NCBI GenBank assembly: GCA_004524535.1
Contig: SDNY01000087.1
Coordinates: forward strand, 1 to 15,305
Direction: 5' to 3'
Length of the DNA stretch: 15,305 bases
Origin: Promethearchaeota archaeon
GTDB lineage: Archaea; Asgardarchaeota; Lokiarchaeia; Sigyniarchaeales; SOKP01
Below, piece after piece: positions 2,755 through 14,569 of the stretch. The position numbers and the translations under genes were made by a program. The notes beneath the pieces were generated by a model, which saw nothing but the letters and a program-made list of their open reading frames with translations, was not told where the DNA came from and did not search any database. Position 1 is the stretch's first letter. Each line of letters starts with the position of its first letter.

Positions 2755-5355
2755 ATGAAAGAAGAATATTTAATTCCAAAACGATATAAATTTAAGGAAA
2801 TCCAAGCAAAATGGATAAAATATTGGAAAGATGAGGAAATATACAATTTTGATATAAACGCAAAGGGAGAAATATTTTCAATTGATACACCCCCTCCATT
2901 TGTTAGTGGAACCTTACATCTAGGACATATTTTAAATCATTCATGGATCGATTTCGTTGCTAGATATAATAAAATGAAGGGACTAAATGTATATTTCCCA
3001 CAGGGATACGACTGTCATGGACTTCCGGTAGAATTAGCAGTTCAGGATAAGTACGGGATTTCACAGCATCAACGCGATGAGTTTTTAGAAAAATGTATCG
3101 AATGGGTAGAGCAAAACATTAAGAATATGACTAAACAATATGATGATTTCGGGTACTCCACTGACTGGAATTTTACTTATAGAACTATGAACGATGATTA
3201 CAAATTCAAGATCCAATGGTCCCTTTTATATTTCTATGAAAAAGGTTGGTTATATCGGGAGAAGTTTCCAACACATTTCTGCGTTAATTGCGAAACATCA
3301 GTTGCCAAAGCCGAAGTTGGATATAATGAAGAACTTGGAAAACTCTGGTATATTAAATTACCTATTGTTGGGAGGGAAGGTGAATATATAACTATAGCTA
3401 CAACGCGACCTGAATATATGGAGGCTTGTGTTGGTGTTTTCATTCATCCGAACGATGAGAGATATTATCATCTTTCCGCTGCAGAAGTGGAAATTCCAAT
3501 GACTAATCGCACAGTTCGTATTGAGATGGATAAAAATGTTGATATGAATTTTGGTACGGGTATCGTTTATTGTTGTACATATGGTGATGAATTGGATATT
3601 AAATGGAAAATAAATTACGATCTTGATGAGATTCAGATTTTTACTGAAGATGGACATATGAATGAGAACTCAAAATACCAGGGGATGACTATATTAGAAG
3701 CTCGAGAGCAGATAGTAAAAGATCTTGATGAAATGGGGTTACTTGAAAAAATTGAGGATTATGAGCATAGAATTGTGATACACTCTGAGCGATCTTCTTG
3801 TAGGAAACCAATAGAATATTTACCTGTTTATCAATGGTTTATTAATGTGAAGGATTTTACTGATGAAATCATCGAATCTGGGAATGTTATGAATTGGTAT
3901 CCTGAAAAACATAAACAAAGGTTAATAGATTGGTGTGAGGGTTTAGATTGGAATTGGGTTATCTCGAGACAACGTGTTTTTGGAACACCGATTCCATTTT
4001 GGTATTGTAAAGAATGTAATGAAATCATTCCGCCAAGAATAGAGGATTTACCATTAGATCCAGTCAAGACAAACCCACCTGTGGATGAATGTCCTAAGTG
4101 TAAAAGTAAAAATTTACAAGGAGAAAAGGATGTATGTGATTGCTGGATTGATTCAAGCATTACACCATTAGCTATTAGCAAATGGCTTGAAGATGATGAA
4201 TTTTTTGAGAAAACATACATGAAGGCAAAAGTTCATCGCCCTCAAGGTTATGAAATAATTCGTACCTGGTTATTTTATACATTATTTCGATGTAAAAAAT
4301 TAACTGGAAAGGCTCCTTTTTATGAGATAATGGTAAACGGCATGGTAGCTGGGCCCGATTCGAAAAAAATGTCCAAGAGTTTCGGTAATATCGTTTCTCC
4401 CGACGAAGTAATGCCCGAATTTGGAGCAGATGCAATTAGACAATGGGCAGCACTGGGATCATTAGGAGATGATTATCCATTTGAATATACATGGGTAGAC
4501 CTTCAGACAAAACAGCCAGTTTCAGATGATAAAATTAAAGAAGAAATGGAGAAATTGCCTGAAGATAAGTTTAATAAGAAATATCGTAGAAAATTTGAAC
4601 AATTGATCGGAGCTTCCCGATTTTTAACTAAGATTTGGAACGCGTATAGGTTTTTAGGGCTAAATTTAAATAAATTCGAGATTTCTGACATTAATATTGA
4701 TAACAATGGATTGACTGTTATTGATAATTATTTTTACTCTGAATTTAATAAGAATTTAGAATTAATTACTAAATATTTTGATGGATACAATTGGCATGAA
4801 GCTTTTACAATAGTAAGACCCTTCTTTTGGAACGAGATCTGTGATAATTACATTGAAGCGATTAAGTATAAGTTTTATTCGGAGGAGCAAGAAACGAGGG
4901 AATGGGCTTTAAAAAACGCTTTAAACCTATTTTATAAGATGTTAACAATTTTTGCGATAATTATGCCCTTTATTTCTGAAGAAATCTATTCAAATATGTA
5001 CAAGAAATTTAAGAAATTAAAATCTATTCACTTAGAGCGTTGGCCGACTCCTTACGAGAATATTTCCGAAGAATTAGCAGAAAAAGGAAAGTTTGGTATC
5101 GATATAATTAAAATTTTGAGGAATTATAAATCAAAACATCAGATTCCGTTAAATCAAGAAATTACTAGAGTTATAATCCTCTCTGATAAAAATAAACAAG
5201 AAATCATTAATGATTTAAAAGAAGATATTAAAAATACTATTCGGATTAAAAATTTGGAAATCTATGAAAAGAACCAAGAAGATAAGATAAAAGACAAACC
5301 GGATTCAAAAGAAATTGTTGATGAGTTAGGAATAATTTTTTATTTTTTATGTTAA
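2755..5355 (+). CDS. valS: Valine--tRNA ligase, archaeal type
   Basis: DTPPPFVSGTLHLGH (HIGH), GYDCHGLP, editing-domain ATTRPE and GTGIV, WVISRQRVFGTPIP and KMSKS. It lacks the bacterial C-terminal coiled-coil arm. Confidence 0.97.
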   Translation: MKEEYLIPKRYKFKEIQAKWIKYWKDEEIYNFDINAKGEIFSIDTPPPFVSGTLHLGHILNHSWIDFVARYNKMKGLNVYFPQGYDCHGLPVELAVQDKYGISQHQRDEFLEKCIEWVEQNIKNMTKQYDDFGYSTDWNFTYRTMNDDYKFKIQWSLLYFYEKGWLYREKFPTHFCVNCETSVAKAEVGYNEELGKLWYIKLPIVGREGEYITIATTRPEYMEACVGVFIHPNDERYYHLSAAEVEIPMTNRTVRIEMDKNVDMNFGTGIVYCCTYGDELDIKWKINYDLDEIQIFTEDGHMNENSKYQGMTILEAREQIVKDLDEMGLLEKIEDYEHRIVIHSERSSCRKPIEYLPVYQWFINVKDFTDEIIESGNVMNWYPEKHKQRLIDWCEGLDWNWVISRQRVFGTPIPFWYCKECNEIIPPRIEDLPLDPVKTNPPVDECPKCKSKNLQGEKDVCDCWIDSSITPLAISKWLEDDEFFEKTYMKAKVHRPQGYEIIRTWLFYTLFRCKKLTGKAPFYEIMVNGMVAGPDSKKMSKSFGNIVSPDEVMPEFGADAIRQWAALGSLGDDYPFEYTWVDLQTKQPVSDDKIKEEMEKLPEDKFNKKYRRKFEQLIGASRFLTKIWNAYRFLGLNLNKFEISDINIDNNGLTVIDNYFYSEFNKNLELITKYFDGYNWHEAFTIVRPFFWNEICDNYIEAIKYKFYSEEQETREWALKNALNLFYKMLTIFAIIMPFISEEIYSNMYKKFKKLKSIHLERWPTPYENISEELAEKGKFGIDIIKILRNYKSKHQIPLNQEITRVIILSDKNKQEIINDLKEDIKNTIRIKNLEIYEKNQEDKIKDKPDSKEIVDELGIIFYFLC

Positions 5356-5690: not shown

Positions 5691-6845
5691 ATGACATTAG
5701 ATTATTGGGAAGATAAAACAGATGCTATAGTTAATGGAGATAATTTAAGAGATGTAAATCAGATCTCGGGAAAAACATTTATAGATGAATTAGGTTTTAA
5801 GCATATTTTTTTTAGGAAAAAACTTTTTCACAACCCTGATTATTGCATTCCAAAGGATCATCTTAATTTATTTAAAAAATTTTTAGATGGGGGATCGAGG
5901 AGTTATCCATCAGATGGGAAGATACCTTTAGATATTATAGCAACAGAGGCAAAATTAATAATAAATAAAATTATAGAGATTTCCTATAATCCTGAACACA
6001 TCTATTATGAAGATGCTAAAGAAGCTCTAAGTAAAGGCAAGTATAATATTGTAAGGGGAACTGTAAAGATTTACCTTAAAAAGTATACAACAAGAGATTG
6101 GAGGAGAAAACGATTTTCAGATGACATAGATTTCTGGATTCATAAAGTAAAGTTATTCGAGTATACTTTAAAAGAATGCGGTTGGAAAAGAAATAATAAA
6201 ACTAAAGAATGGGAAAAACAATTAGAATGGTTTAATTATGAAACTAAACAAAGAAATACTGGAATTTTAATTGCTTCGAATGATATAAATCAAGCAATGG
6301 ATTTCGGTAATTGTAGTTATCTTGATGGATGTTCTCTAAAAGATATTTTTCATAAAAAGTTAAAACGTGGCCATGATGTTGATTTAAGCGATATAATTAA
6401 TATAGCATTAGTCCAAAATAAAAAATATAATACAAGCGAAGAATGGGAGAATTCTTGGAAAGCTATTAAGGAAGCAATAAATACACGTAGTAAAAGGACA
6501 ATTTCCAATTTAATAAGTCTTTGTAAGTATGCTTCTGCAATTGCTGATTATATTGAACGTGTTGGGGACAGTATCCATATGTATAAAAAGTTGATATTTG
6601 ATAAATCAATGTTTCCAAATTCAAAATTAGAGGAGATTTGTCATTTTTCAAGTCACTGGACTGGGTATTTCCATAACAACGGGCCAGAATCGACACGCAG
6701 CTTGATTTATTCCTATTTGATTGAACAACAAAATAAAAGAATATTTTACGCAGAAAATCTAAGAGATTTTGTAAGAGAAGTATTAAACTATCTCAACTAT
6801 AAATTTCAGTATGCTAAAATTGTTTTCGAAATAGAAAATAAATAG
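5691..6845 (+). CDS. Hypothetical protein with Pol-beta-like nucleotidyltransferase motifs (AbiEii/MenT-like)
   Basis: 384-aa ORF with VRGT (aa 121-124), RFSDDIDFW (aa 141-149) and a downstream KKLKRGHDVDLSD (aa 222-234). These resemble the hG[GST]...RxSxDhD and K...R...D..D motifs of AbiEii-type NTases. The CDS is secure; the function is inferred. Confidence 0.6.
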   Translation: MTLDYWEDKTDAIVNGDNLRDVNQISGKTFIDELGFKHIFFRKKLFHNPDYCIPKDHLNLFKKFLDGGSRSYPSDGKIPLDIIATEAKLIINKIIEISYNPEHIYYEDAKEALSKGKYNIVRGTVKIYLKKYTTRDWRRKRFSDDIDFWIHKVKLFEYTLKECGWKRNNKTKEWEKQLEWFNYETKQRNTGILIASNDINQAMDFGNCSYLDGCSLKDIFHKKLKRGHDVDLSDIINIALVQNKKYNTSEEWENSWKAIKEAINTRSKRTISNLISLCKYASAIADYIERVGDSIHMYKKLIFDKSMFPNSKLEEICHFSSHWTGYFHNNGPESTRSLIYSYLIEQQNKRIFYAENLRDFVREVLNYLNYKFQYAKIVFEIENK

Positions 6846-6920: not shown

Positions 6921-7340
6921 TCACTCTTGAGAGAGTTCATCATCTTGAGAGAGTTCATCATCTTGAGAGAGTTCATCATCTTGAGAGAGTTCATCATCTT
7001 GAGAGAGTTCTTCGTCTTGAAAGGATTCTACATTTGTTGACGAAATTTCATCAAGACCTAACTGTGCAATCATAACCCTTTTCAGTTCTTCTTTGTCTGT
7101 TGGTAATCCGAACATTTCAGAATATTTATTTGTTGTTGTTAATTCTTTTGATCTCCCTTTTTTCATTGAGTCAATGAGCCCGTTATCTTCGAGATATTTG
7201 ACATGTTCATAAGCTCCGCTCCCTCTTATTTTTACTACCAAAGATTTCATTATAGGTTGTTTCAAAGCAATAATAGTCAATGTTTTTAAGTATTTCTCTG
7301 CTATAGCACCACCTTTAAGTAAATTTAGATACTTTCGCAG
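6921..7340 (-). pseudogene. scpB: Truncated second copy of scpB (C-terminal winged-helix half) with a different acidic tail
   Basis: 7048-7234 matches 8289-8475 at 186/187 nt. 7235-7316 matches at 68/82 nt. Homology (SAKVSKFT vs AEKVSKFA) continues to about 7340 across a +1 frameshift near 7317. The N-terminal half is absent. An open frame from TTG 7280 (119 aa) remains. Confidence 0.85.
6925..7020. repeat. 18-bp tandem repeat, about 5.3 copies, encoding (QDDELS)n on the minus strand
   Basis: TCTTGAGAGAGTTCATCA occurs as four perfect copies (6925-6996), one copy with 2 mismatches (6997-7014) and a partial TCTTGA (7015-7020). Confidence 0.97.
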
Positions 7341-8475
7341 AAAGTAAATTTATTGATTTCTCATTTTTTAGATAAATCAAATACTTTTATGTAAAATTTA
7401 TTAAATATCATAGGTTTTTGTTAAATAATATGTCCAATCAATTAATTGAATTTTTAGGAGGGGAATCCTAATTAGTAATAATTTAGATGATTTAATGAAA
7501 GAAGTTGTTCAGCAAAAAGAATTTGTTTTTTCAGCGAAATGGACTTATCCTTGGTTTTTTGTCTTGTTTATTACTTTAATTATGTCAATAGTCTTATTGA
7601 TAGTATTTCCAATCCTTGCTATATTTCCATTCCTTGTTTTTCTTGCATTTTTTGCCTTTCTGTGTAAAAAAAAACAAGCAAATTTAGTAATTAATCCAAG
7701 AGAAGTAAGATTTGAAAAGGGATTTTTTCCAGTAATAGTAAAATATGAAGATGTACATACCATAGAATATTATACTGAGACAGTAAATTTTATGAATACA
7801 GATTATTATGTGAAATTTATTCTTAAAAATGGCAGACCTGTAAAAAAAACTCTCCGTTATTGGAAAGTTCCCTATAGTTTTGATCCTGAAATCTATCTAA
7901 GAACAATTATTGAAGCATATTTAATGTTATATAAAAAAGGAATAACCAAAAATGAACAACAATTGAGTTTACAATCACCTCAATTTGAAAAAAAATACTG
8001 TACTAAATGTGGAAGTGATAATTCGACTAAAAGTAAATATTGTACTTATTGTGGAACTCAACTTAATTAATGCATTTTGGCACAATTTACAGTATTGAAT
8101 AATTAAACGTATTATTCAAGGAAAATATTTTTGGATTATAAATATCAGGATTTTTGTTAAAAATTCGATAAAATGAAGATTATTAAGTTATTGAATTCAA
8201 AATGATTTCAAGATTTTGCGTTTTTTTTATCTATTCTTCTTCATTATTTTCTAATTCTTGTGGTTCTTCTTCTGGTTCAGAAGTTATCTCATCAAGACCT
8301 AACTGTGCAATCATAACCCTTTTCAGTTCTTCTTTGTCTGTTGGTAATCCGAACATTTCAGAATATTTATTTGTTGTTGTTAATTCTTTTGATCTCCCTT
8401 TTTTCACTGAGTCAATGAGCCCGTTATCTTCGAGATATTTGACATGTTCATAAGCTCCGCTCCCTCTTATTTTTA
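7048..8475. repeat. 187-bp near-identical direct repeat pair (7048-7234 and 8289-8475, offset 1241 bp)
   Basis: Manual alignment shows a single mismatch (T7166 vs C8407; Met vs Val). Confidence 0.95.
7495..8070 (+). CDS. Membrane protein with C-terminal zinc ribbon
   Basis: Hydrophobic segment at about aa 20-56 (one or two TM helices), a beta-rich soluble middle region, and C-terminal CTKC-x10-CTYC. Confidence 0.8.
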   Translation: MKEVVQQKEFVFSAKWTYPWFFVLFITLIMSIVLLIVFPILAIFPFLVFLAFFAFLCKKKQANLVINPREVRFEKGFFPVIVKYEDVHTIEYYTETVNFMNTDYYVKFILKNGRPVKKTLRYWKVPYSFDPEIYLRTIIEAYLMLYKKGITKNEQQLSLQSPQFEKKYCTKCGSDNSTKSKYCTYCGTQLN

Positions 8476-9055
8476 TAACTAATGATTTCAATATGGGTTG
8501 CTTCAAAGCAATAATAGTTAAAGTTCTTAAGTATTTTTGCGCTATAGCACCTCCTTTTGCAAACTTTGAGACTTTTTCTGCATATTCTGATTTAATTTGC
8601 ATTTGGTAGCTATCGCCTATCTGAGCGATCATAAGAGAGGTTGAACGATCTAAGTAATCAAAAGCTATGTCATTAATTAACTCTTCGACCTCCTTTTTTG
8701 GGATTTCGAGTTTAGTTGATAATTCTTCAATACTTAATGGTCTACCAGCCACATAAAGAGAAGCTTCAATTTGATTTCTATGGAAATCTCTTAATTGTCT
8801 TGCTAATAGTTCTTCTTCAGATATTTCAGATTTTAAGGATAATCCATTTTGGACATCGATTTCCTTTTTTGAAATTACATTGTTAATAATTTCTTCATCA
8901 TTATTTTCAGTTGCGCTTTCTTGGGATTGATTTTTTGGAATATTATCAATTTTTTCGTTTGAATCATCATCTGATTCCCCGTTTAATTCCTGCTCTAATT
9001 GCTCCTCATTATTTTCTTCGGATTTATCATCTAAATCTTCATCAAAATTATTCAA
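8231..9055 (-). CDS. scpB: Segregation and condensation protein B (kite subunit of Smc-ScpAB)
   Basis: IEASLYVAGRPLSIEEL, LRTLTIIALKQPI..S....IRG, GRSKELTTTNKYSEMFGL. It has an acidic N-terminal extension of about 85 aa and lies directly downstream of scpA. TTG start preceded by GGAG. Confidence 0.95.
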   Translation of the reverse strand: MNNFDEDLDDKSEENNEEQLEQELNGESDDDSNEKIDNIPKNQSQESATENNDEEIINNVISKKEIDVQNGLSLKSEISEEELLARQLRDFHRNQIEASLYVAGRPLSIEELSTKLEIPKKEVEELINDIAFDYLDRSTSLMIAQIGDSYQMQIKSEYAEKVSKFAKGGAIAQKYLRTLTIIALKQPILKSLVIKIRGSGAYEHVKYLEDNGLIDSVKKGRSKELTTTNKYSEMFGLPTDKEELKRVMIAQLGLDEITSEPEEEPQELENNEEE

Positions 9056-9088: not shown

Positions 9089-10093
9089 TTATTTCTTAAT
9101 ACCAATTGAAATATTTTTAAATTCATCATTCTGAAGTAACTCAAGTTTACCACTGGTACTTAAGAACATAAGGGCTAAAAATAATCTTATTAGAGCAAAT
9201 TTTCTTCCAATACTACTTTTTTCATCGTTTTTTATTATATTGAGAAGATCGAAAAAACTCGTATCAACGTTGTTAAGATTAATTGTTGCATTTATTCGAT
9301 TTAACCAGCTCTCGAGTAATTCTTCTATAGACTGTTCTTTTCCGCTTATGTGTTTTAACAGTTCTTTAGGTAATTTAGCTTTTGATTTCATTTGCATTGT
9401 TTTCTGTTTTTCTTCTTCTCTGCGCATTCTTCTGCGTTTCAATTTTTCTTTATTTTGCATTGTTTCAATGATGGCAGCTCTCATTGCATCAAATAATTCA
9501 TCTTTTGTAGCAATTTGCATTTTAGGTTGTATAGGTTGAGGTAAAGCTTTAGGAATCGTTCTTGAATGTCTCGCTCTAAGTTTTTCTAGTTCCTCCTTTT
9601 TTTGAATCTGTTCTTCTTCTTTTATTATACTGGAAATTTTGTAATGATGCAAAGATGCGGCTGATTTAAGAGCAATTCCAGAGATTTTATAATTAATTAA
9701 CTCTTCTTTAAGCATTTTAGAAAAGAATTTTTCTATTAAATTTGATAAATCGTAAAATACTACTTCAGAATCTTTTGCTAATTCAAGGTCTAATAATGAA
9801 GAATAAGGAGGTTTTTGCCAAAATTTTAATAAAGTTTTTTCTTTTCTTAATAACGCAATATCTTCATCATCAAATTCAGCAACTAATTCTTCTTCTAATG
9901 TTTCTTCTTGAGATCTATCAACAAAATCAGGATGCGCAACTACTTTTTGAATAAGTTCTACAATATCCTTTTTTTTGGACTTTGAAGGTATTTTTATGTT
10001 ATTCTTACTACAAAATTCTTTTAATTCCTTTACAGTCCAATTGTTAAAATCTGTATTTTTAATAGATTTTTTCTCTTCTGAAATTATTTTCAC
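9089..10093 (-). CDS. scpA: Segregation and condensation protein A (kleisin) with N-terminal SAP/HeH-like domain
   Basis: N-kleisin-like YDLSNLIEKF...INYKISGIALKSAASLHHYK and C-terminal winged helix SFFDLL...LFLALMFLSTSGKLELLQNDEFKNISI. It sits between smc and scpB. Confidence 0.88.
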   Translation of the reverse strand: MKIISEEKKSIKNTDFNNWTVKELKEFCSKNNIKIPSKSKKKDIVELIQKVVAHPDFVDRSQEETLEEELVAEFDDEDIALLRKEKTLLKFWQKPPYSSLLDLELAKDSEVVFYDLSNLIEKFFSKMLKEELINYKISGIALKSAASLHHYKISSIIKEEEQIQKKEELEKLRARHSRTIPKALPQPIQPKMQIATKDELFDAMRAAIIETMQNKEKLKRRRMRREEEKQKTMQMKSKAKLPKELLKHISGKEQSIEELLESWLNRINATINLNNVDTSFFDLLNIIKNDEKSSIGRKFALIRLFLALMFLSTSGKLELLQNDEFKNISIGIKK

Positions 10094-10111: not shown

Positions 10112-13100
10112 CTAACCTTCTTCAACTTCAGGAACTATATCTTCAAGTTCAAGAAGTTTTTTTGCCTCTTCTTCTAAATCAACGCTAAAGATATCTGTTA
10201 TTCCACTCTGTGGCATAGAAACTCCATATATTCTATCGGCATTAACAATATTTTCTTCTCGATGGCTAATCACTAAAAATTGCGCTTGGCTTGAGAACTC
10301 TTTCAGTGTCATGCTTACTCTATGAACATTTGGGTCGTCCAAGGCCGCATCAATCTCATCTAAAATATAAAATGGAGCAGGATAAAATTCCTGAACAGCA
10401 AAAATGAAAGAAAGTGCAACTAAGGTTTTTTCTCCTCCGCTTAGAATCTCCAGAGAGCTTATTTTCTTACCTCTTGGTCTTGCTTCAATCGAAATTCCAC
10501 CCTCAAAAGGTTTATCAGGTCTATCCAAAATCATTTTAGCTGAACCTCCAGGAGAAAGTTTCTGAAAAATCCTTGAAAATTCTCGATTAATTTCATGATA
10601 AGCCTTCATGAAAGTACGTGTTTTTTCTAATTCAATTTTATCAATTGAGTCTAGAATTGCTTTCCGTTCTCTTTGGATTGTTTGTCTTCGCATATCTATC
10701 TCATCAAACCTTTCTTTAACAACATCATATTGTTCAATAGCTTTTAAATTAACTGGTTCAAGTGCTTTTTTCTTTTTTGTGGTACTTTCAATGTCAGATT
10801 GTAGGCTTTCTTCCGATAGATCATCAGTTACAGGAGGTAACGTGCCGTATTCTTTTGATCTCTCAAATAAAGTTTCAATTTGATCAGTACAAATAATTTT
10901 TTTAGACTCAAAATTGTTCATTTTAGAATTTTCCATCGAAAGATCTGATTTTAGATCAGTAATAAGTTTTTGATAATTTTTTTGCTTTTTCCAAGATTCA
11001 TCTTTTTCTTGAATTAATTTATCTATTTCTTCTTGTTTTGCGTCTTTTTTCTTAATTTCGGATTCTAAGCTTTCTTCAAGTTTTTCAATTTCTTTTACTA
11101 ACGATACTGTTTGGTTTTCAGTATCTTTAATATCCTCCTCTATTTTTACTATTTGTTGTTCTCTCTCTTTATTTTTGTTTAACTCATTTAATTTTCCTTG
11201 AGATTTCTGGAGTTCTTTATTTAATTTATTTAATTTATTTTGAGCTGCCTTTTGTTCTCCTAATTCTTTAGCCTTTTCATCCCTTAAAGAGTCTATTTCT
11301 TTTTGTTTATTATCTACATTTTTTTGGATTTTGTCAACTTCAGAATTATAGGTATCTATATCTTTTTTGCTTAATTCAATATTTTTATTAGCCTCTAAAT
11401 TTTCATTAGTTAGTTCTTCAATTGAATTAATAATTCTCATAATATTATCAAGTCCTCTCAAAGTATCCATGGTTTCTTCTAGTTTTTTATTTTCTTCATC
11501 TATTTTAACCTGTATATTTTCAGTTTTTTCCCAGTATTTCTCTTTATCACTGCTTAGAGATTCTATTTTTTTTTGTAAAGAATCTGCCTCTAGTTGTATC
11601 TTCCTAATACTCTCTTCAGTATTGATTATTATTTTTTTCTTTTCTTCTATTGTGTTATTCATTTCCAGTAAGATATTGTCAATTTCTTCAATATTCCCGA
11701 ATAATGTTTGAATCCCTTGTAGTTCCTGTAGTTTTTCTTGATTAATATTTAATTCATTTTGGGTTGATTCAATCTCATCTTGAATCTTAGAAAGATTATC
11801 CCAGTATTTATCTTTAATTTCCTTTAATTTTTTAATTTCAATATCTAAATCATCATAATTCTTTTGTATTTCTTTGATTTTTGTATTCCTATCCTCAATT
11901 TCTTTTTTATATTTTTCAATCCTCGAGTTTAATTCATTCATTCTTTTGTCAATTTCCTCGAGCTTTCGGTTTGATGTTGAGAGTTTTTCTGAATCATGTT
12001 TATTTTGGCTGTCCAATATCGTTAGTTTTCTTTCTATATCATTAAAATCATCACTTTGAGATTTGATACTATTCGAAATTTCTTCTAACTGTTTATAAAG
12101 CTCTTGGCTTTTAGATAAAGTTAATTTTCTTAAAGACAAATGCACATTTTCAAGAATATATGTTAAATCTTGAACAAAACCATCAAAATTTGATGTAGAA
12201 TCTTGTACCGCAATATCAACCGAGTCCTTTACTTTATAAATAAGTTGTTCTATTGTAGAATCGGCATTCTCAGTAAAAAGACCTAATGTCTGAACAATCG
12301 AATTAAGTGTACCTGTCATTTCAGGCGTTTCATCCACATCACAGCTTATACCTTCAAGTGTTTTCATTATATCAACAATATCTAACATAAATTTTTTGAA
12401 ATCTTCCGCAGACATGTCAATTGCTTCGGCATTTGATTGTTGTATGGTTCCCTTAATAGATTCTACAGACACATCAATGTTTTGAGTAAGCATATTAAGA
12501 ATTTGTAGAATTCCTGTGATATCTTCTGTATTTTTCCCATATTCTTCTTCTGAACCTTCAATTCTCTTCAATAAAGTTTCCTTCTCTTGAGAGAGTTCAT
12601 TTAACCGTCTTTGAATATTTTCTTTTTTGATATTGAGAGTACTTATTTCTTTTTCTGTATTTGAAATTTTAGCATTTAAATCAGTAGTAATTAATTCTAA
12701 ATTACGTTTTTCACGTTCTAAGGTCGTCAATTCTTTTTTAAATATTTTTTGCTCAGTAATAATGTTAGAAATTTTTCCATTATTATCGATAATTTCATTT
12801 TCAATAGAGCTTTGTTTCAATTTTAATAGTTCAAAATTTTGTTCGTTTTCTCGATAAATTGAATCCTCGTTTTTTGATTTATTCTTTAATTCAGTATTTT
12901 TTTTGATAATATTTTCTTTTTCCTTTATGAGTTCTTTTATAACTTCTTCAGTATCTTTATCTTTACTTAATTCTTTAATTTTTATCTCTGTGTCTGCTTT
13001 TTTCTTTTTCAAATCCGCAACTGTCTCATTATTCATTTTAATTTCCGTATTAAGAGATGATAATGTTGATTGTAAATCAGATAATTTTGAATTTAAATCA

Positions 13101-14569
13101 CTCTTCTCTTTTTGTATTGAATTAATTGAATTTTCTAAATTAATTTGATTCTTATTTTCTTCAGATATCCTATTTTTTAAATCATCAATCTTTTTTCTAA
13201 TCTCGGTTTCAATTTTTTTCGTAGCTTCAATAGCATCTTCTATACTCTCAGCCTCTCCCTTTAATTTATCTAATTCTATTTCTAGATTCTTTTTCTTCTC
13301 TTCATTTTTTTTAATATTTTCTTTATGAAGTTTAATTTGTGCCTTATTTGACGAGATTTGTTGTTTAAAGTTCGAAATTTCTGACTTTAAATTAGATTTC
13401 TCATCTTCACTATTTTTGATTTTAACATCAAGTTCGGCTTGATTTTGCTGACTTTTTTCAACATCATTTTTTGCGTCTTCTATTTGCGCTTCTTTTTCAG
13501 ATATTTCTTTTGATACACTTTCAATTAAAGAATCAGAATTTTGACCTTCTTCAAGAATCATTAATAATTTCTCTAAATTTTCTTTGTCCTGATTTAATTT
13601 CTCTATTGATTTTTTAGCTAAGTTTAAAGTTGTTTGGTTAGAAGATAACTCTGTCTTTAGTTGTGTAATACCTTCGTTTACTTCTTCTCTTTCTTTTTCT
13701 TTTTCAGATACTGTTTTTTGGATATTTTCCATAACAAGAGATTCTTGTTTCAAAAGGTCTTCTTGTCTAGCTATCTTTTCTTGTAATTCTTCAATTATTT
13801 TAGAAGATTCTTCAATTTTTTTATCTAATTCTTCTTCTTCTTTTTGTAATTTTGAGATTTTTAAAGATATTAATTGGGCGTAATATTGGTTTATCTGATC
13901 ATCCAACTCTCTCCAAGCTATTGCGTCATTTTTTTCTTTTTCAACTTTTCTTAATTGAGAAGATACTTCCTTAAAGATTGCCTCAAATTGACCGAGGTCT
14001 CGCTCAGCCTTTTCTAATTCCTTTAACGTCACATCTTTCATCTCATCGTATTTTTGAAGTCCAATAAGTTCTTCAATAAATTTTCTTCTATCTTCTGCAT
14101 TCATGTGAGTTAATTCGACGATCTTGCCTTGAAGGACAAATTGGTTAGATCCATCAGGATCTATATTAGCTGCGGCTAACGCACTAAGGATTTGCTGTCT
14201 AGTGGCTTTTTTACCATTCATTTTATAGCCCCCACCCCCGCCTCTCTTTATAGTTCTACTAATTGTGAAATCTCCATCTACGCCCCCCGGAAATACACTA
14301 TCAGAGTTATCGAAATGTAATGTAACACTAGCACGATTTGCTTGGGTTTTACCTTTAGATCCCGCAAAAATAAGATCCTCTAAACTTTTAGCTCTCATTG
14401 TCTTTTTACTTAATCGTCCAAGTGCGAAACATAAAGCATCGATAATATTTGACTTGCCAGCTCCGTTGGGTCCGACGATACATGTAAAGCCACTGCTTAG
14501 CTTTACGGTGACGGTTCTATCTCCAAATGATTTGAAGCCTGTCATTGATATCTTTTTAATATACGTCAA
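10112..14569 (-). CDS. smc: Chromosome segregation protein Smc, elongated and without a canonical hinge
   Basis: GFKSF, Walker A GPNGAGKSN, Q-loop VLQG, PVNLKAI, signature LSGGEK, Walker B/D-loop FYILDEIDAALD and H-loop ISH. Long coiled coils; TTG start. Confidence 0.96.
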   Translation of the reverse strand: MTYIKKISMTGFKSFGDRTVTVKLSSGFTCIVGPNGAGKSNIIDALCFALGRLSKKTMRAKSLEDLIFAGSKGKTQANRASVTLHFDNSDSVFPGGVDGDFTISRTIKRGGGGGYKMNGKKATRQQILSALAAANIDPDGSNQFVLQGKIVELTHMNAEDRRKFIEELIGLQKYDEMKDVTLKELEKAERDLGQFEAIFKEVSSQLRKVEKEKNDAIAWRELDDQINQYYAQLISLKISKLQKEEEELDKKIEESSKIIEELQEKIARQEDLLKQESLVMENIQKTVSEKEKEREEVNEGITQLKTELSSNQTTLNLAKKSIEKLNQDKENLEKLLMILEEGQNSDSLIESVSKEISEKEAQIEDAKNDVEKSQQNQAELDVKIKNSEDEKSNLKSEISNFKQQISSNKAQIKLHKENIKKNEEKKKNLEIELDKLKGEAESIEDAIEATKKIETEIRKKIDDLKNRISEENKNQINLENSINSIQKEKSDLNSKLSDLQSTLSSLNTEIKMNNETVADLKKKKADTEIKIKELSKDKDTEEVIKELIKEKENIIKKNTELKNKSKNEDSIYRENEQNFELLKLKQSSIENEIIDNNGKISNIITEQKIFKKELTTLEREKRNLELITTDLNAKISNTEKEISTLNIKKENIQRRLNELSQEKETLLKRIEGSEEEYGKNTEDITGILQILNMLTQNIDVSVESIKGTIQQSNAEAIDMSAEDFKKFMLDIVDIMKTLEGISCDVDETPEMTGTLNSIVQTLGLFTENADSTIEQLIYKVKDSVDIAVQDSTSNFDGFVQDLTYILENVHLSLRKLTLSKSQELYKQLEEISNSIKSQSDDFNDIERKLTILDSQNKHDSEKLSTSNRKLEEIDKRMNELNSRIEKYKKEIEDRNTKIKEIQKNYDDLDIEIKKLKEIKDKYWDNLSKIQDEIESTQNELNINQEKLQELQGIQTLFGNIEEIDNILLEMNNTIEEKKKIIINTEESIRKIQLEADSLQKKIESLSSDKEKYWEKTENIQVKIDEENKKLEETMDTLRGLDNIMRIINSIEELTNENLEANKNIELSKKDIDTYNSEVDKIQKNVDNKQKEIDSLRDEKAKELGEQKAAQNKLNKLNKELQKSQGKLNELNKNKEREQQIVKIEEDIKDTENQTVSLVKEIEKLEESLESEIKKKDAKQEEIDKLIQEKDESWKKQKNYQKLITDLKSDLSMENSKMNNFESKKIICTDQIETLFERSKEYGTLPPVTDDLSEESLQSDIESTTKKKKALEPVNLKAIEQYDVVKERFDEIDMRRQTIQRERKAILDSIDKIELEKTRTFMKAYHEINREFSRIFQKLSPGGSAKMILDRPDKPFEGGISIEARPRGKKISSLEILSGGEKTLVALSFIFAVQEFYPAPFYILDEIDAALDDPNVHRVSMTLKEFSSQAQFLVISHREENIVNADRIYGVSMPQSGITDIFSVDLEEEAKKLLELEDIVPEVEEG

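Follow-up and report, generated by a model that had tools for sequence, protein, structure and literature searches.

A long condensin-type SMC protein with a putative duplicated helical apex in place of the hinge in one order of Asgard archaea

A gene of a Promethearchaeota archaeon was found to encode a long SMC protein that carries, at its midpoint, an internally duplicated segment predicted to be helical, and that lacks a detectable hinge. The gene lies in a stretch of 15,305 nucleotides (hereafter, the window; contig SDNY01000087.1 of assembly GCA_004524535.1). We consider, with a probability of about 0.6, that it encodes a paralogous condensin-type SMC in which the hinge has given way to a duplicated helical apex, with long arms and with a kleisin-like protein and an ScpB of its own, and that the apex would serve dimerisation. 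According to this reading, the long SMC would be a paralogue that branched off from the canonical Smc of archaea and then became fixed in a single order of the Loki-type Asgard archaea. An all-helical apex of ~140 residues, made by tandem duplication of one helical unit of ~55 residues with a period of 71 residues, would have replaced the globular hinge. The protein would work with its own kleisin-like subunit, which bears a putative SAP/HeH-like DNA-binding domain, and with its own ScpB; in this genome, it would do so alongside a canonical Smc–ScpB complex and an SMC5/6-like complex.

Heads, arms and partner genes of the long SMC

The whole gene occupies positions 10112..14569 on the minus strand, and its translation in the ORF list comprises 1485 aa from a TTG start; the midpoint region at 12110–12547 on the same strand, to which a sequence-only reading had drawn attention, corresponds to aa 675–820 of this ORF, as that reading had stated. 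The reading frame is open and every ATPase motif is intact. The N-terminal half of the head (~aa 1–170; 14060..14569, minus strand) contains the Walker A motif GPNGAGKS at aa 33 and the Q-loop at aa 147, and the C-terminal half (~aa 1271–1485; 10115..10759, minus strand) contains the signature LSGGE at aa 1376, the Walker B motif FYILDEID at aa 1400 and the H-loop ISHR at aa 1434. In the Pfam scan, the protein matched PF02463 (SMC_N) at 2.7e-42. Its score against TIGR02168 was above the cut-off (600 bits; cut-off 567), and that against TIGR02169 was below (623 bits; cut-off 729). The RecN model TIGR00634 gave 28 bits compared with a cut-off of 407.85, and the Rad50 models of NCBIfam gave 45–92 bits compared with cut-offs of 700–1087. 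The earlier description of a condensin-type SMC with normal heads therefore agrees with PF02463, TIGR02168 and all five ATPase motifs. The heads were strongly conserved, with a mean identity to 43 relatives of 0.84 for the N-terminal half and a mean identity to relatives of 0.90 for the C-terminal half; the identity between the C-terminal head and that of the canonical Smc of the same genome was 36%.

Profile alignment and AF2 models delimited an ascending coiled-coil arm of ~513 aa (~aa 171–683; 12521..14059, minus strand) and a descending one (~aa 831–1270; 10760..12079, minus strand). The long-SMC profile aligned to the canonical Smc profile along both arms. Compared with canonical Smc, the hhalign profiles indicated ~150 extra residues in the ascending arm, with the main insert at ~aa 271–353, and ~120 in the descending arm, with the main insert at ~aa 1005–1075, although insert boundaries within a coiled coil are approximate; the arms are thus ~1.4–1.5 times the usual length. 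In the ascending arm, 42% of residues are charged. That the arms run antiparallel was indicated by the AF2 model of aa 600–900, in which the flanks form a helical hairpin with pLDDT >90.

Two further genes follow on the minus strand, the first of which (9089..10093) encodes a 334-aa kleisin-like protein with an N-terminal SAP/HeH-like domain, assigned by PF10281 and by its position. The second (8231..9055) encodes a 274-aa ScpB kite with acidic N- and C-terminal extensions, which matched PF04079 at 1e-34 and TIGR00281 with 99.8 bits (cut-off 89.2), so that the kite expected beside the Smc was indeed there. The kleisin, on the other hand, is not the normal one that had been supposed: PF02616 (ScpA kleisin) had no match on this protein (P0002), and the domain at its N-terminus was that of PF10281 (Ish1; 31.2 bits, above the cut-off of 26.6), matches to HeH, SAP and Rho_N all being below their cut-offs. 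Several of its homologues are named kleisin family by JGI, and its profile found only one partner in PDB, namely the Scc1 C-terminal domain, which aligned weakly (E 0.2) to its C-terminus. Position, size, the JGI label and the weak Scc1 match together point to a putative divergent kleisin. The only PF02616 match elsewhere in this genome, a 294-aa ORF on contig C129 (E 0.24), was also considered as a kleisin and was rejected, because its sequence was taken to be that of a nucleoside phosphorylase-like enzyme. The kleisin-like and ScpB genes adjoined each other in all five relatives compared, and in four of the five they were located ≤3 kb from the long SMC.

A duplicated helical apex without a hinge or hook

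Neither an SMC hinge nor a MukB hinge nor a Rad50 hook was found among the Pfam matches of the long SMC at E ≤ 1, and MukB families were likewise absent among them. The PF06470 (SMC_hinge) model did match the two other SMCs of the same genome (~109.5–114 bits for the best and 30.6 bits for the other). When the apex was compared with a profile of 17 Asgard Smc hinges, the hhalign probability of homology was 0.4%. A global profile alignment of long against canonical SMCs placed the apex on the hinge columns, but we regarded this placement as forced, given the 0.4% of the domain-only comparison. The motif CxxC is absent from the whole protein, and from aa 600–900 in 42 of 42 aligned relatives. 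The absence of both an SMC hinge and a Rad50-type hook, as first read from the sequence, is thus borne out by these searches and by the all-helical models described below.

The apex consists of repeat 1 (aa 684–738; 12356..12520) and repeat 2 (aa 755–809; 12143..12307), both on the minus strand and both delimited by duplication statistics and conservation. Without gaps, the two repeats share 14 of 55 residues at a period of 71 aa, exactly as had been noticed, with a BLOSUM62 score of 67, which was reached in none of 20000 shuffles (z 6.3). A free local alignment of the apex recovered the same register, and none of 500 shuffles equalled it. This register was also significant in each of the 15 orthologues compared, which come from two families of the order (z 4.7–7.8; 0 of 5000 shuffles for each), and the profile of repeat 1 matched that of repeat 2 with a probability of 97.9% (hhalign, E 3.5e-13). 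The claim of a gapless duplication is therefore confirmed by shuffling, orthologues and profiles alike.

Between the repeats lies a variable acidic linker (aa 739–754; 12308..12355, minus strand), recognized by its length, identity and pLDDT. Conservation is lowest here (mean identity 0.33), and the length of the linker among relatives ranges from 7 to 22 residues. The single Cys of the turn-like joint that had been pointed out is present as Cys743; it is not conserved, since any Cys occurs in this linker in only 6 of 42 relatives. The repeats are followed by a conserved post-apex segment with the motif L.KLT.SKS.ELY (aa 810–830; 12080..12142, minus strand), defined from alignment A4 and AF2. 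With a mean identity of 0.62–0.69, compared with 0.53–0.61 for the arms and 0.84–0.90 for the heads, the apex is conserved only slightly above the arms. Its composition is distinct: large hydrophobic residues account for 38% of the apex compared with 26–27% of the arms, and charged residues for 22% compared with 42%; 6 Lys and Arg stand against 22 Asp and Glu, giving a net charge of –16. Alignment A4 further showed, in each repeat, a conserved Ser four residues ahead of a conserved Phe (S720/F724 and S791/F795).

We compared two AF2 models of this region, both of which were all-helical, as had been proposed for the apex. When aa 600–900 were modelled together with the flanking arms from a 44-sequence alignment, the mean pLDDT was 84.3 (77–82 in the apex), and the model showed one helix at aa 601–744 and a turn at aa 745–748 within a long hairpin, with a predicted kink in the post-apex segment at aa 819–821. 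A turn at this position would place repeat 1 antiparallel against repeat 2. Foldseek matches of this model were antiparallel coiled coils, including Smc arm fragments (5nnv and 5xg2); the structures named were the Smc arms of B. subtilis and Pyrococcus, the MukB elbow, the dynein stalk and a chemoreceptor hairpin, and a hinge fold was not among them. When the apex was modelled in isolation, a four-helix bundle within one chain was obtained at low confidence (pLDDT 65.6), with helices at aa 671–710, 714–744, 749–781 and 785–824. The two models thus differ in topology, an extended hairpin with flanks compared with a four-helix bundle alone, and in both of them the linker had the lowest pLDDT. 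Searches of PDB and Pfam with the apex sequence and profile yielded insignificant matches only (an adhesin, MCP, designed bundles and IL-10).

The isolated model raises the possibility that the apex folds into a four-helix-bundle cap within a single chain and does not dimerise, the two SMC chains being held by engaged heads, kleisin, the ScpB dimer and zippering of the arms, so that the tip would stay open and a closed tripartite ring would not be needed. The breaks of that model (aa 711–713 and 782–784) fall at equivalent places in both repeats, its best Foldseek matches were up-down four-helix bundles (TM to query 0.55–0.67), and the weak PDB profile matches include designed helical bundles. 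In addition, the S-x-x-[DN]-F motifs conserved at aa 720 and 791 resemble helix N-caps; each repeat would then more likely be a helix-loop-helix, with its hydrophobic residues buried in one chain, and a dimer would not be required. However, none of those Foldseek matches reached E 1e-3, the confidence of the bundle is low, and once flanking arms and a deeper alignment were supplied, AF2 returned a continuous hairpin with higher confidence. Moreover, the putative loops are free of indels in 15 of 15 orthologues, although the central linker can be as short as 7 or as long as 22 aa. We therefore regard such a cap as unlikely.

On the preferred reading, that of an apex joining two chains, the hydrophobic, charge-poor and acidic apex would be a protein–protein module, and two apex hairpins may pack as a four-helix bundle to connect two SMC arms. 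We infer dimerisation through such a bundle because a two-helix hairpin would expose excess hydrophobic surface. The heads and the kleisin would then close the ring as in Smc-ScpAB, and the DNA contacts usual for a hinge would be lost or shifted, for example to the SAP/HeH domain of the kleisin; the net charge of –16 and the presence of that domain on the kleisin suggest such a relocation. The small margin by which the apex exceeds the arms in conservation, the differing topologies of the two models and the weak kleisin assignment count against this reading. The cytoplasmic hairpin of chemoreceptors (MCP) consists of long antiparallel helices that form a four-helix bundle in the homodimer. Its structure 2ch7 matched the apex weakly (sequence E 0.18; Foldseek E 1.4e-3, TM 0.46), and it offers an analogy for the pairing of two hairpins, with no significant sequence relationship to the apex. 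A homodimer prediction with two copies of aa 640–860 (alignment A2), run without controls, gave a score of 0.04 and a mark of 0.42, values that count as evidence on binding in neither direction. A 2918-aa bacterial repeat protein (P0146) with 13 stretches matching repeat 2 was judged a compositional or repeat artefact, and it was excluded from all alignments.

Paralogy, distribution and non-SMC carriers of the apex

This genome has three SMC loci. Contig C139 encodes a 1195-aa canonical Smc with the strong hinge match (~109.5–114 bits), followed by its own ScpB, and contig C103 encodes an SMC5/6-like protein. The condensin-type assignment of the window's gene holds, but not the impression that it was the organism's only Smc. 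Because the canonical Smc is retained, the window's gene is a paralogue, and it may serve a specialised function in this genome, not a general one. A tree of the heads (41 rows, 6 of them the SMC5/6-like outgroup) united the long SMCs in one clade (100/100) nested in the canonical-type clade, and a 100/100 branch with a length of 3.29 separated the SMC5/6-like proteins from both. BLASTP of the long SMC against the SMC5/6-like protein of C103 gave only 1e-15. Within the long-SMC clade, branches were shorter than those of the canonical Smc from the same genomes.

The apex was present in 135 of 399 genomes of the phylum. This presence was distributed over the families f1, to which the window's genome belongs (112/133), f2 (1/1), f3 (14/14) and f4 (2/4), all within the window's order. 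Two matches elsewhere were not accepted as a wider distribution. That in G063 (f16) is on an 8.6-kb contig, and its heads are identical to P0133 and nest in the f3 clade, a finding that we attribute to mis-binning of the contig or to recent transfer; that in G039 (f13; 73% identity, three fragments) was tentatively interpreted in the same way. The apex module is thus confined to one order of the phylum. A strong hinge match was found in only 11 of 133 other f1 genomes, and in all five high-quality f1 genomes, the sole Pfam hinge match above the cut-off belonged to an SMC5/6-like ORF of ~1160 aa. Judged from these sequence searches, the long SMC is apparently the only condensin-type SMC in most of f1, the canonical Smc having been lost.

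This distribution also bears on whether the architecture is an assembly artefact, or the gene a decaying paralogue that has lost its hinge while the canonical Smc of C139 does the work. The retention of the canonical Smc–ScpB in this genome would fit such decay. Yet this architecture recurs in >120 protein clusters drawn from independent assemblies, as well as in the single-contig genomes G135, G138 and G143, and the open frame, intact ATPase motifs, heads 84–90% identical across relatives and short branches are at odds with it, as are the f1 genomes, most of which keep the long SMC and not the canonical one. On such conservation, this explanation is effectively refuted.

The whole apex module was also detected in a non-SMC protein, P0144 (hhalign 98.8%, E 4.5e-17), which has the post-apex motif L.KLT.SKS.ELY as well. 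Its occurrence in a non-SMC protein argues for a discrete domain. Such carriers are ~1000–1180 aa long, with the module near the N-terminus; some have two copies, and some have Lys-rich, histone-H1-like tails. Around the P0144-type gene in G135, no informative families were found. Several f3 genomes contain both a long SMC and a carrier. It is conceivable, then, that the apex is chiefly a docking platform for another factor, possibly this same-module protein by heterotypic helix packing, which would load the complex onto chromatin or tether it there; the acidic, Lys- and Arg-poor apex is itself unlikely to bind DNA. Nevertheless, the window's genome has no P0144-type second protein, the sole match of P0144 there being the SMC apex, and among the listed f1 genomes only G219 has a carrier. 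A partner that is missing here and nearly so in f1 cannot be the general explanation, and we regard docking as the chief function as improbable. A more far-reaching version of the preferred reading, which we put forward only tentatively, is that a new autonomous helical domain for both dimerisation and docking replaces the hinge. This domain would form a four-helix bundle between SMC chains and would dock heterotypically with the Lys-rich non-SMC carriers, and most of the family would have no working condensin other than the long SMC.

Comparison with known SMC systems and significance

We compared the long SMC with known systems. Similar to Smc-ScpAB, it has full head motifs, heads that group with canonical Asgard Smc, long antiparallel arms, and a kleisin-sized gene between the SMC gene and that of the ScpB kite. 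It differs from Smc-ScpAB by the lack of PF06470, by arms longer by ~150 and ~120 residues, by the acidic duplicated helical apex, and by a kleisin without PF02616 and with a SAP/HeH-like N-terminus. With Rad50/SbcC it shares an SMC-superfamily ATPase and a coiled-coil tip that is a simple helical hairpin without a globular hinge; unlike Rad50/SbcC, it lacks CxxC and its putative partners are a kleisin-like protein and ScpB, and the window ORFs that were scanned contained no Mre11-like family. MukB/MksB is distinguished from it by the lack of any MukB family match, by heads that group with canonical Smc and by the kleisin-like and ScpB neighbours.

Sussfeld et al. (2025, PMC12153180) recently described, in marine Actinobacteria, ‘hinge-less’ SMC homologues that have SMC-type heads and a coiled coil but neither hinge nor CxxC, and suggested that they represent a novel form of SMC biology. 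The authors found none of them co-occurring with a regular SMC, and in the passages of that article devoted to them, neither a duplicated apex nor ScpAB partners are described, so that these bacterial proteins are set apart from the long SMC by description. A preprint reported a third SMC complex in some Asgard archaea (bioRxiv 10.1101/2024.01.07.573240), with which the three SMC loci of this genome accord. In the portion of its text considered here, the term ‘hinge’ occurs in three general descriptions and a missing hinge is unmentioned; the additional kite clade of that preprint groups with Nse3, and the kite in the window resembles ScpB instead. We found no published description of a duplicated helical SMC apex in the literature.

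Nearly all SMC complexes have a hinge, to which roles in dimerisation, in the binding and entry of DNA and in communication with the heads have been ascribed. If the tentative, more far-reaching reading is true, a loop-extruding Smc–kleisin–kite machine would need neither the hinge fold nor the DNA-binding surface of the hinge, and this would be shown in the archaeal lineage closest to eukaryotes. A long hinge-less SMC makes it possible to ask by direct biochemistry why a hinge is needed and how the length of the arms is set. Because hinge-bearing and hinge-less complexes are encoded side by side in this genome, their division of labour could be compared within one organism, and because the order belongs to the Asgard archaea, the finding bears on the multiplication of SMC complexes before eukaryotes arose.

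The hinge-less SMC and its duplicated apex

We analyzed the 1485-aa ORF encoded on the minus strand of the window (positions 10112–14569), in which the region previously singled out (12110–12547) corresponds, as the sequence-only reading had placed it, to aa 675–820. The protein matched PF02463 (2.7e-42) and TIGR02168 (600 bits, exceeding the cut-off of 567), scored 623 bits against TIGR02169 without reaching the cut-off of 729, and contains the full set of Walker A, Q-loop, signature, Walker B and H-loop motifs; it is an SMC. Profile alignment with the canonical, hinge-bearing Smc placed its added length chiefly at aa 271–353 and 1005–1075, with smaller inserts besides, and the arms exceed those of canonical Smc by ~150 and ~120 residues, with approximate boundaries within the coiled coil.

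The sequence-only reading had claimed that this protein lacks both an SMC hinge and a Rad50-type CxxC hook, and both absences were borne out. A Pfam scan at E ≤ 1 returned neither a hinge nor a hook family, and the same hinge model did detect two other genes of this genome. Comparison of the apex profile with a profile built from 17 Asgard Smc hinges gave a probability of 0.4%, PDB searches with the apex sequence and profile yielded no significant match, and CxxC was found within aa 600–900 in none of 42 relatives.

At the apex, aa 684–738 align without gaps to aa 755–809 with 14/55 identities and a BLOSUM62 score of 67, which was equalled by none of 20000 shuffles, and a free local alignment returned the identical register. 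We aligned this apex with those of 14 further orthologues, drawn from two of the order's families (alignment A4). Because the repeat register was significant in all 15 orthologues (z = 4.7–7.8) and the profiles of the two repeats matched each other (hhalign probability 97.9%, E = 3.5e-13), the proposed tandem duplication is real and older than the split of the sampled families. Conserved residues occupy matching positions in the two repeats (N697/N768, S720/S791, F724/F795 and D730/D801). The linker joining them has the lowest conservation and varies from 7 to 22 residues; only 6 of 42 relatives carry a Cys anywhere in it, and the single Cys to which the sequence-only reading had drawn attention is not conserved.

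Predicted structure and composition of the apex

An AF2 model of aa 600–900 (44 sequences, mean pLDDT 84.3) consisted exclusively of helices (601–744, 749–767, 769–818 and 822–899, with a turn at 745–748 and a kink at 819–821), and repeats 1 and 2 were packed antiparallel against each other. Foldseek matched this model to antiparallel coiled coils (Smc arm fragments of B. subtilis and Pyrococcus, the MukB elbow, dynein stalks and the chemoreceptor hairpin); no hinge was among the matches. The apex modelled alone (15 sequences) had lower confidence (pLDDT 65.6) and formed four helices, each repeat being broken at an equivalent site (aa 711–713 and 782–784); the nearest Foldseek matches were up-down four-helix bundles, none reaching E = 1e-3. 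These two models and their matches point to a helical apex, with a predicted topology of either a hairpin in extended form or a bundle of four helices.

Large hydrophobic residues make up 38% of the apex, compared with 26–27% of the arms, and charged residues 22%, compared with 42%; the apex contains 6 Lys+Arg and 22 Asp+Glu. This hydrophobicity is too high for a two-stranded coiled coil that lies exposed, and the acidity too great for a surface that binds DNA.

Full-text literature searches found no account of a hinge-less Asgard SMC. The available portion of one study treats archaeal SMCs as canonical and SMC5/6-related only (PMC8665677). SMC homologues that lack a hinge have been described from marine Actinobacteria (PMC12153180). 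A preprint notes, for some Asgard archaea, three paralogous kites and what may be an additional duplication of the entire complex (bioRxiv 10.1101/2024.01.07.573240). The observation of a hinge-less SMC with a duplicated apex is accordingly confirmed, and its interpretation in the sequence-only reading is partly supported, pseudo-symmetric dimerisation through the apex being putative.

Partner genes and SMC paralogues

The SMC gene is followed consecutively, on the same strand, by genes for a kleisin-like protein (9089–10093, 334 aa) and ScpB (8231–9055, 274 aa; PF04079, 1e-34). The kleisin-like protein had no PF02616 match. Its aa 1–50 (9944–10093, minus strand) form a SAP/HeH-like domain of the Ish1-type helix-extension-helix class (PF10281, 31.2 bits), and some of its 400–410-aa orthologues have extra SAP, HeH and Rho_N matches; to our knowledge, such an N-terminus is unusual in ScpA. 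Several homologues are labelled as kleisin family by JGI, and the sole PDB match of the profile was the Scc1 C-terminal domain (E = 0.2). The protein is probably a divergent kleisin.

ScpB is extended at both ends, by ~90 residues of strongly acidic, low-complexity sequence at the N-terminus and by an acidic tail at the C-terminus. A small minus-strand ORF (6921–7280; 119 aa from a TTG start, 142 aa between stop codons) lies ~1 kb away from the operon, with a plus-strand zinc-ribbon gene (7495–8070) in between. Its match is confined to the second winged-helix half of ScpB (PF04079 positions 90–158, 1e-12), and it appears to be a ScpB paralogue with a single domain. A plus-strand 384-aa ORF (5691–6845) without a Pfam family at E ≤ 0.01 is situated between the gene for a class I aminoacyl-tRNA synthetase (2755–5355) and the operon region.

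The window (contig C11) belongs to a 3.66-Mb genome (G000) of 99% completeness. Because two other contigs, out of reach of the sequence-only reading, carry further SMC genes, the window SMC is a paralogue and not the sole Smc. The first (C139:2752-6895) encodes a canonical Smc of 1195 aa in which the hinge scores strongly (109.5 bits), directly followed by a short ScpB of 189 aa and adjoined by no recognisable ScpA; a PF02616 search of the whole genome gave no kleisin above the cut-off. The second (C103:20746-26641) encodes a 1150-aa SMC5/6-like protein with a weak hinge (25.8 bits). The ORFs on its flanks (410, 215 and 177 aa) have no Pfam family and may encode a divergent kleisin and Nse-like kites.

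Phylogeny and distribution

In a tree of the head regions of 18 long SMCs, 17 canonical ones and 6 of the SMC5/6-like type (41 proteins in all; 476 columns, LG+C20+F+G4, careful search), the long SMCs formed a single clade (100/100) with a stem of 0.9, nested in the canonical-type clade, from which the SMC5/6-like outgroup was split at 100/100. The tree gave them no resolved place among canonical Asgard lineages, and internal branches of the long clade were shorter than those of canonical Smc from the same genomes.

The apex was found in 135 of 399 genomes of the phylum. Within the window's order it occurred in families f1 (112/133, the window's family), f2 (1/1), f3 (14/14) and f4 (2/4), and outside the order there were, apart from a handful of marginal matches, only two cases, both probably mis-binned. 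A phmmer search of 1.84 billion representatives returned just 29 proteins at E ≤ 1e-3. The whole module also occurs near the N-terminus of non-SMC proteins of ~1000–1180 aa, chiefly in f3 (P0144, P0143, P0148 and P0150; for example, G135:C1:3822492-3822914, L058:4997-8122, minus strand). For P0144, which holds two modules, the match to the apex profile had a probability of 98.8% (E = 4.5e-17), and some of these proteins have Lys-rich, histone-H1-like tails (PF07382, 24.7 bits, under the cut-off). A search of the window's genome found no such protein.

Strong hinge matches (E below 1e-20) were present in 11 of 133 other f1 genomes, compared with 10/14 in f3 and 3/4 in f4. The large genera g11 (0/54) and g12 (0/42) had weak matches only. 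In the window's own genus, 4 of 9 genomes, G000 included, had a strong canonical hinge, and a 92% complete member (G168) had a weak match only; canonical Smc thus seems to be variably retained even between close relatives. In five f1 genomes of 90–100% completeness, the sole Pfam hinge match above the cut-off lay in an SMC5/6-like ORF of 1155–1170 aa, and two of the five had an added match below the threshold in a ~525-aa ORF (E = 0.05 and 0.15). Three of these five genomes (G205, G161 and G264), searched for ScpB as well, each had one copy, adjoining the kleisin-like gene. Because strong hinges are this scarce in f1, and given the hinge content of the five genomes and the single ScpB of the three, gene content indicates that most of this family has lost canonical Smc and retained the hinge-less SMC.
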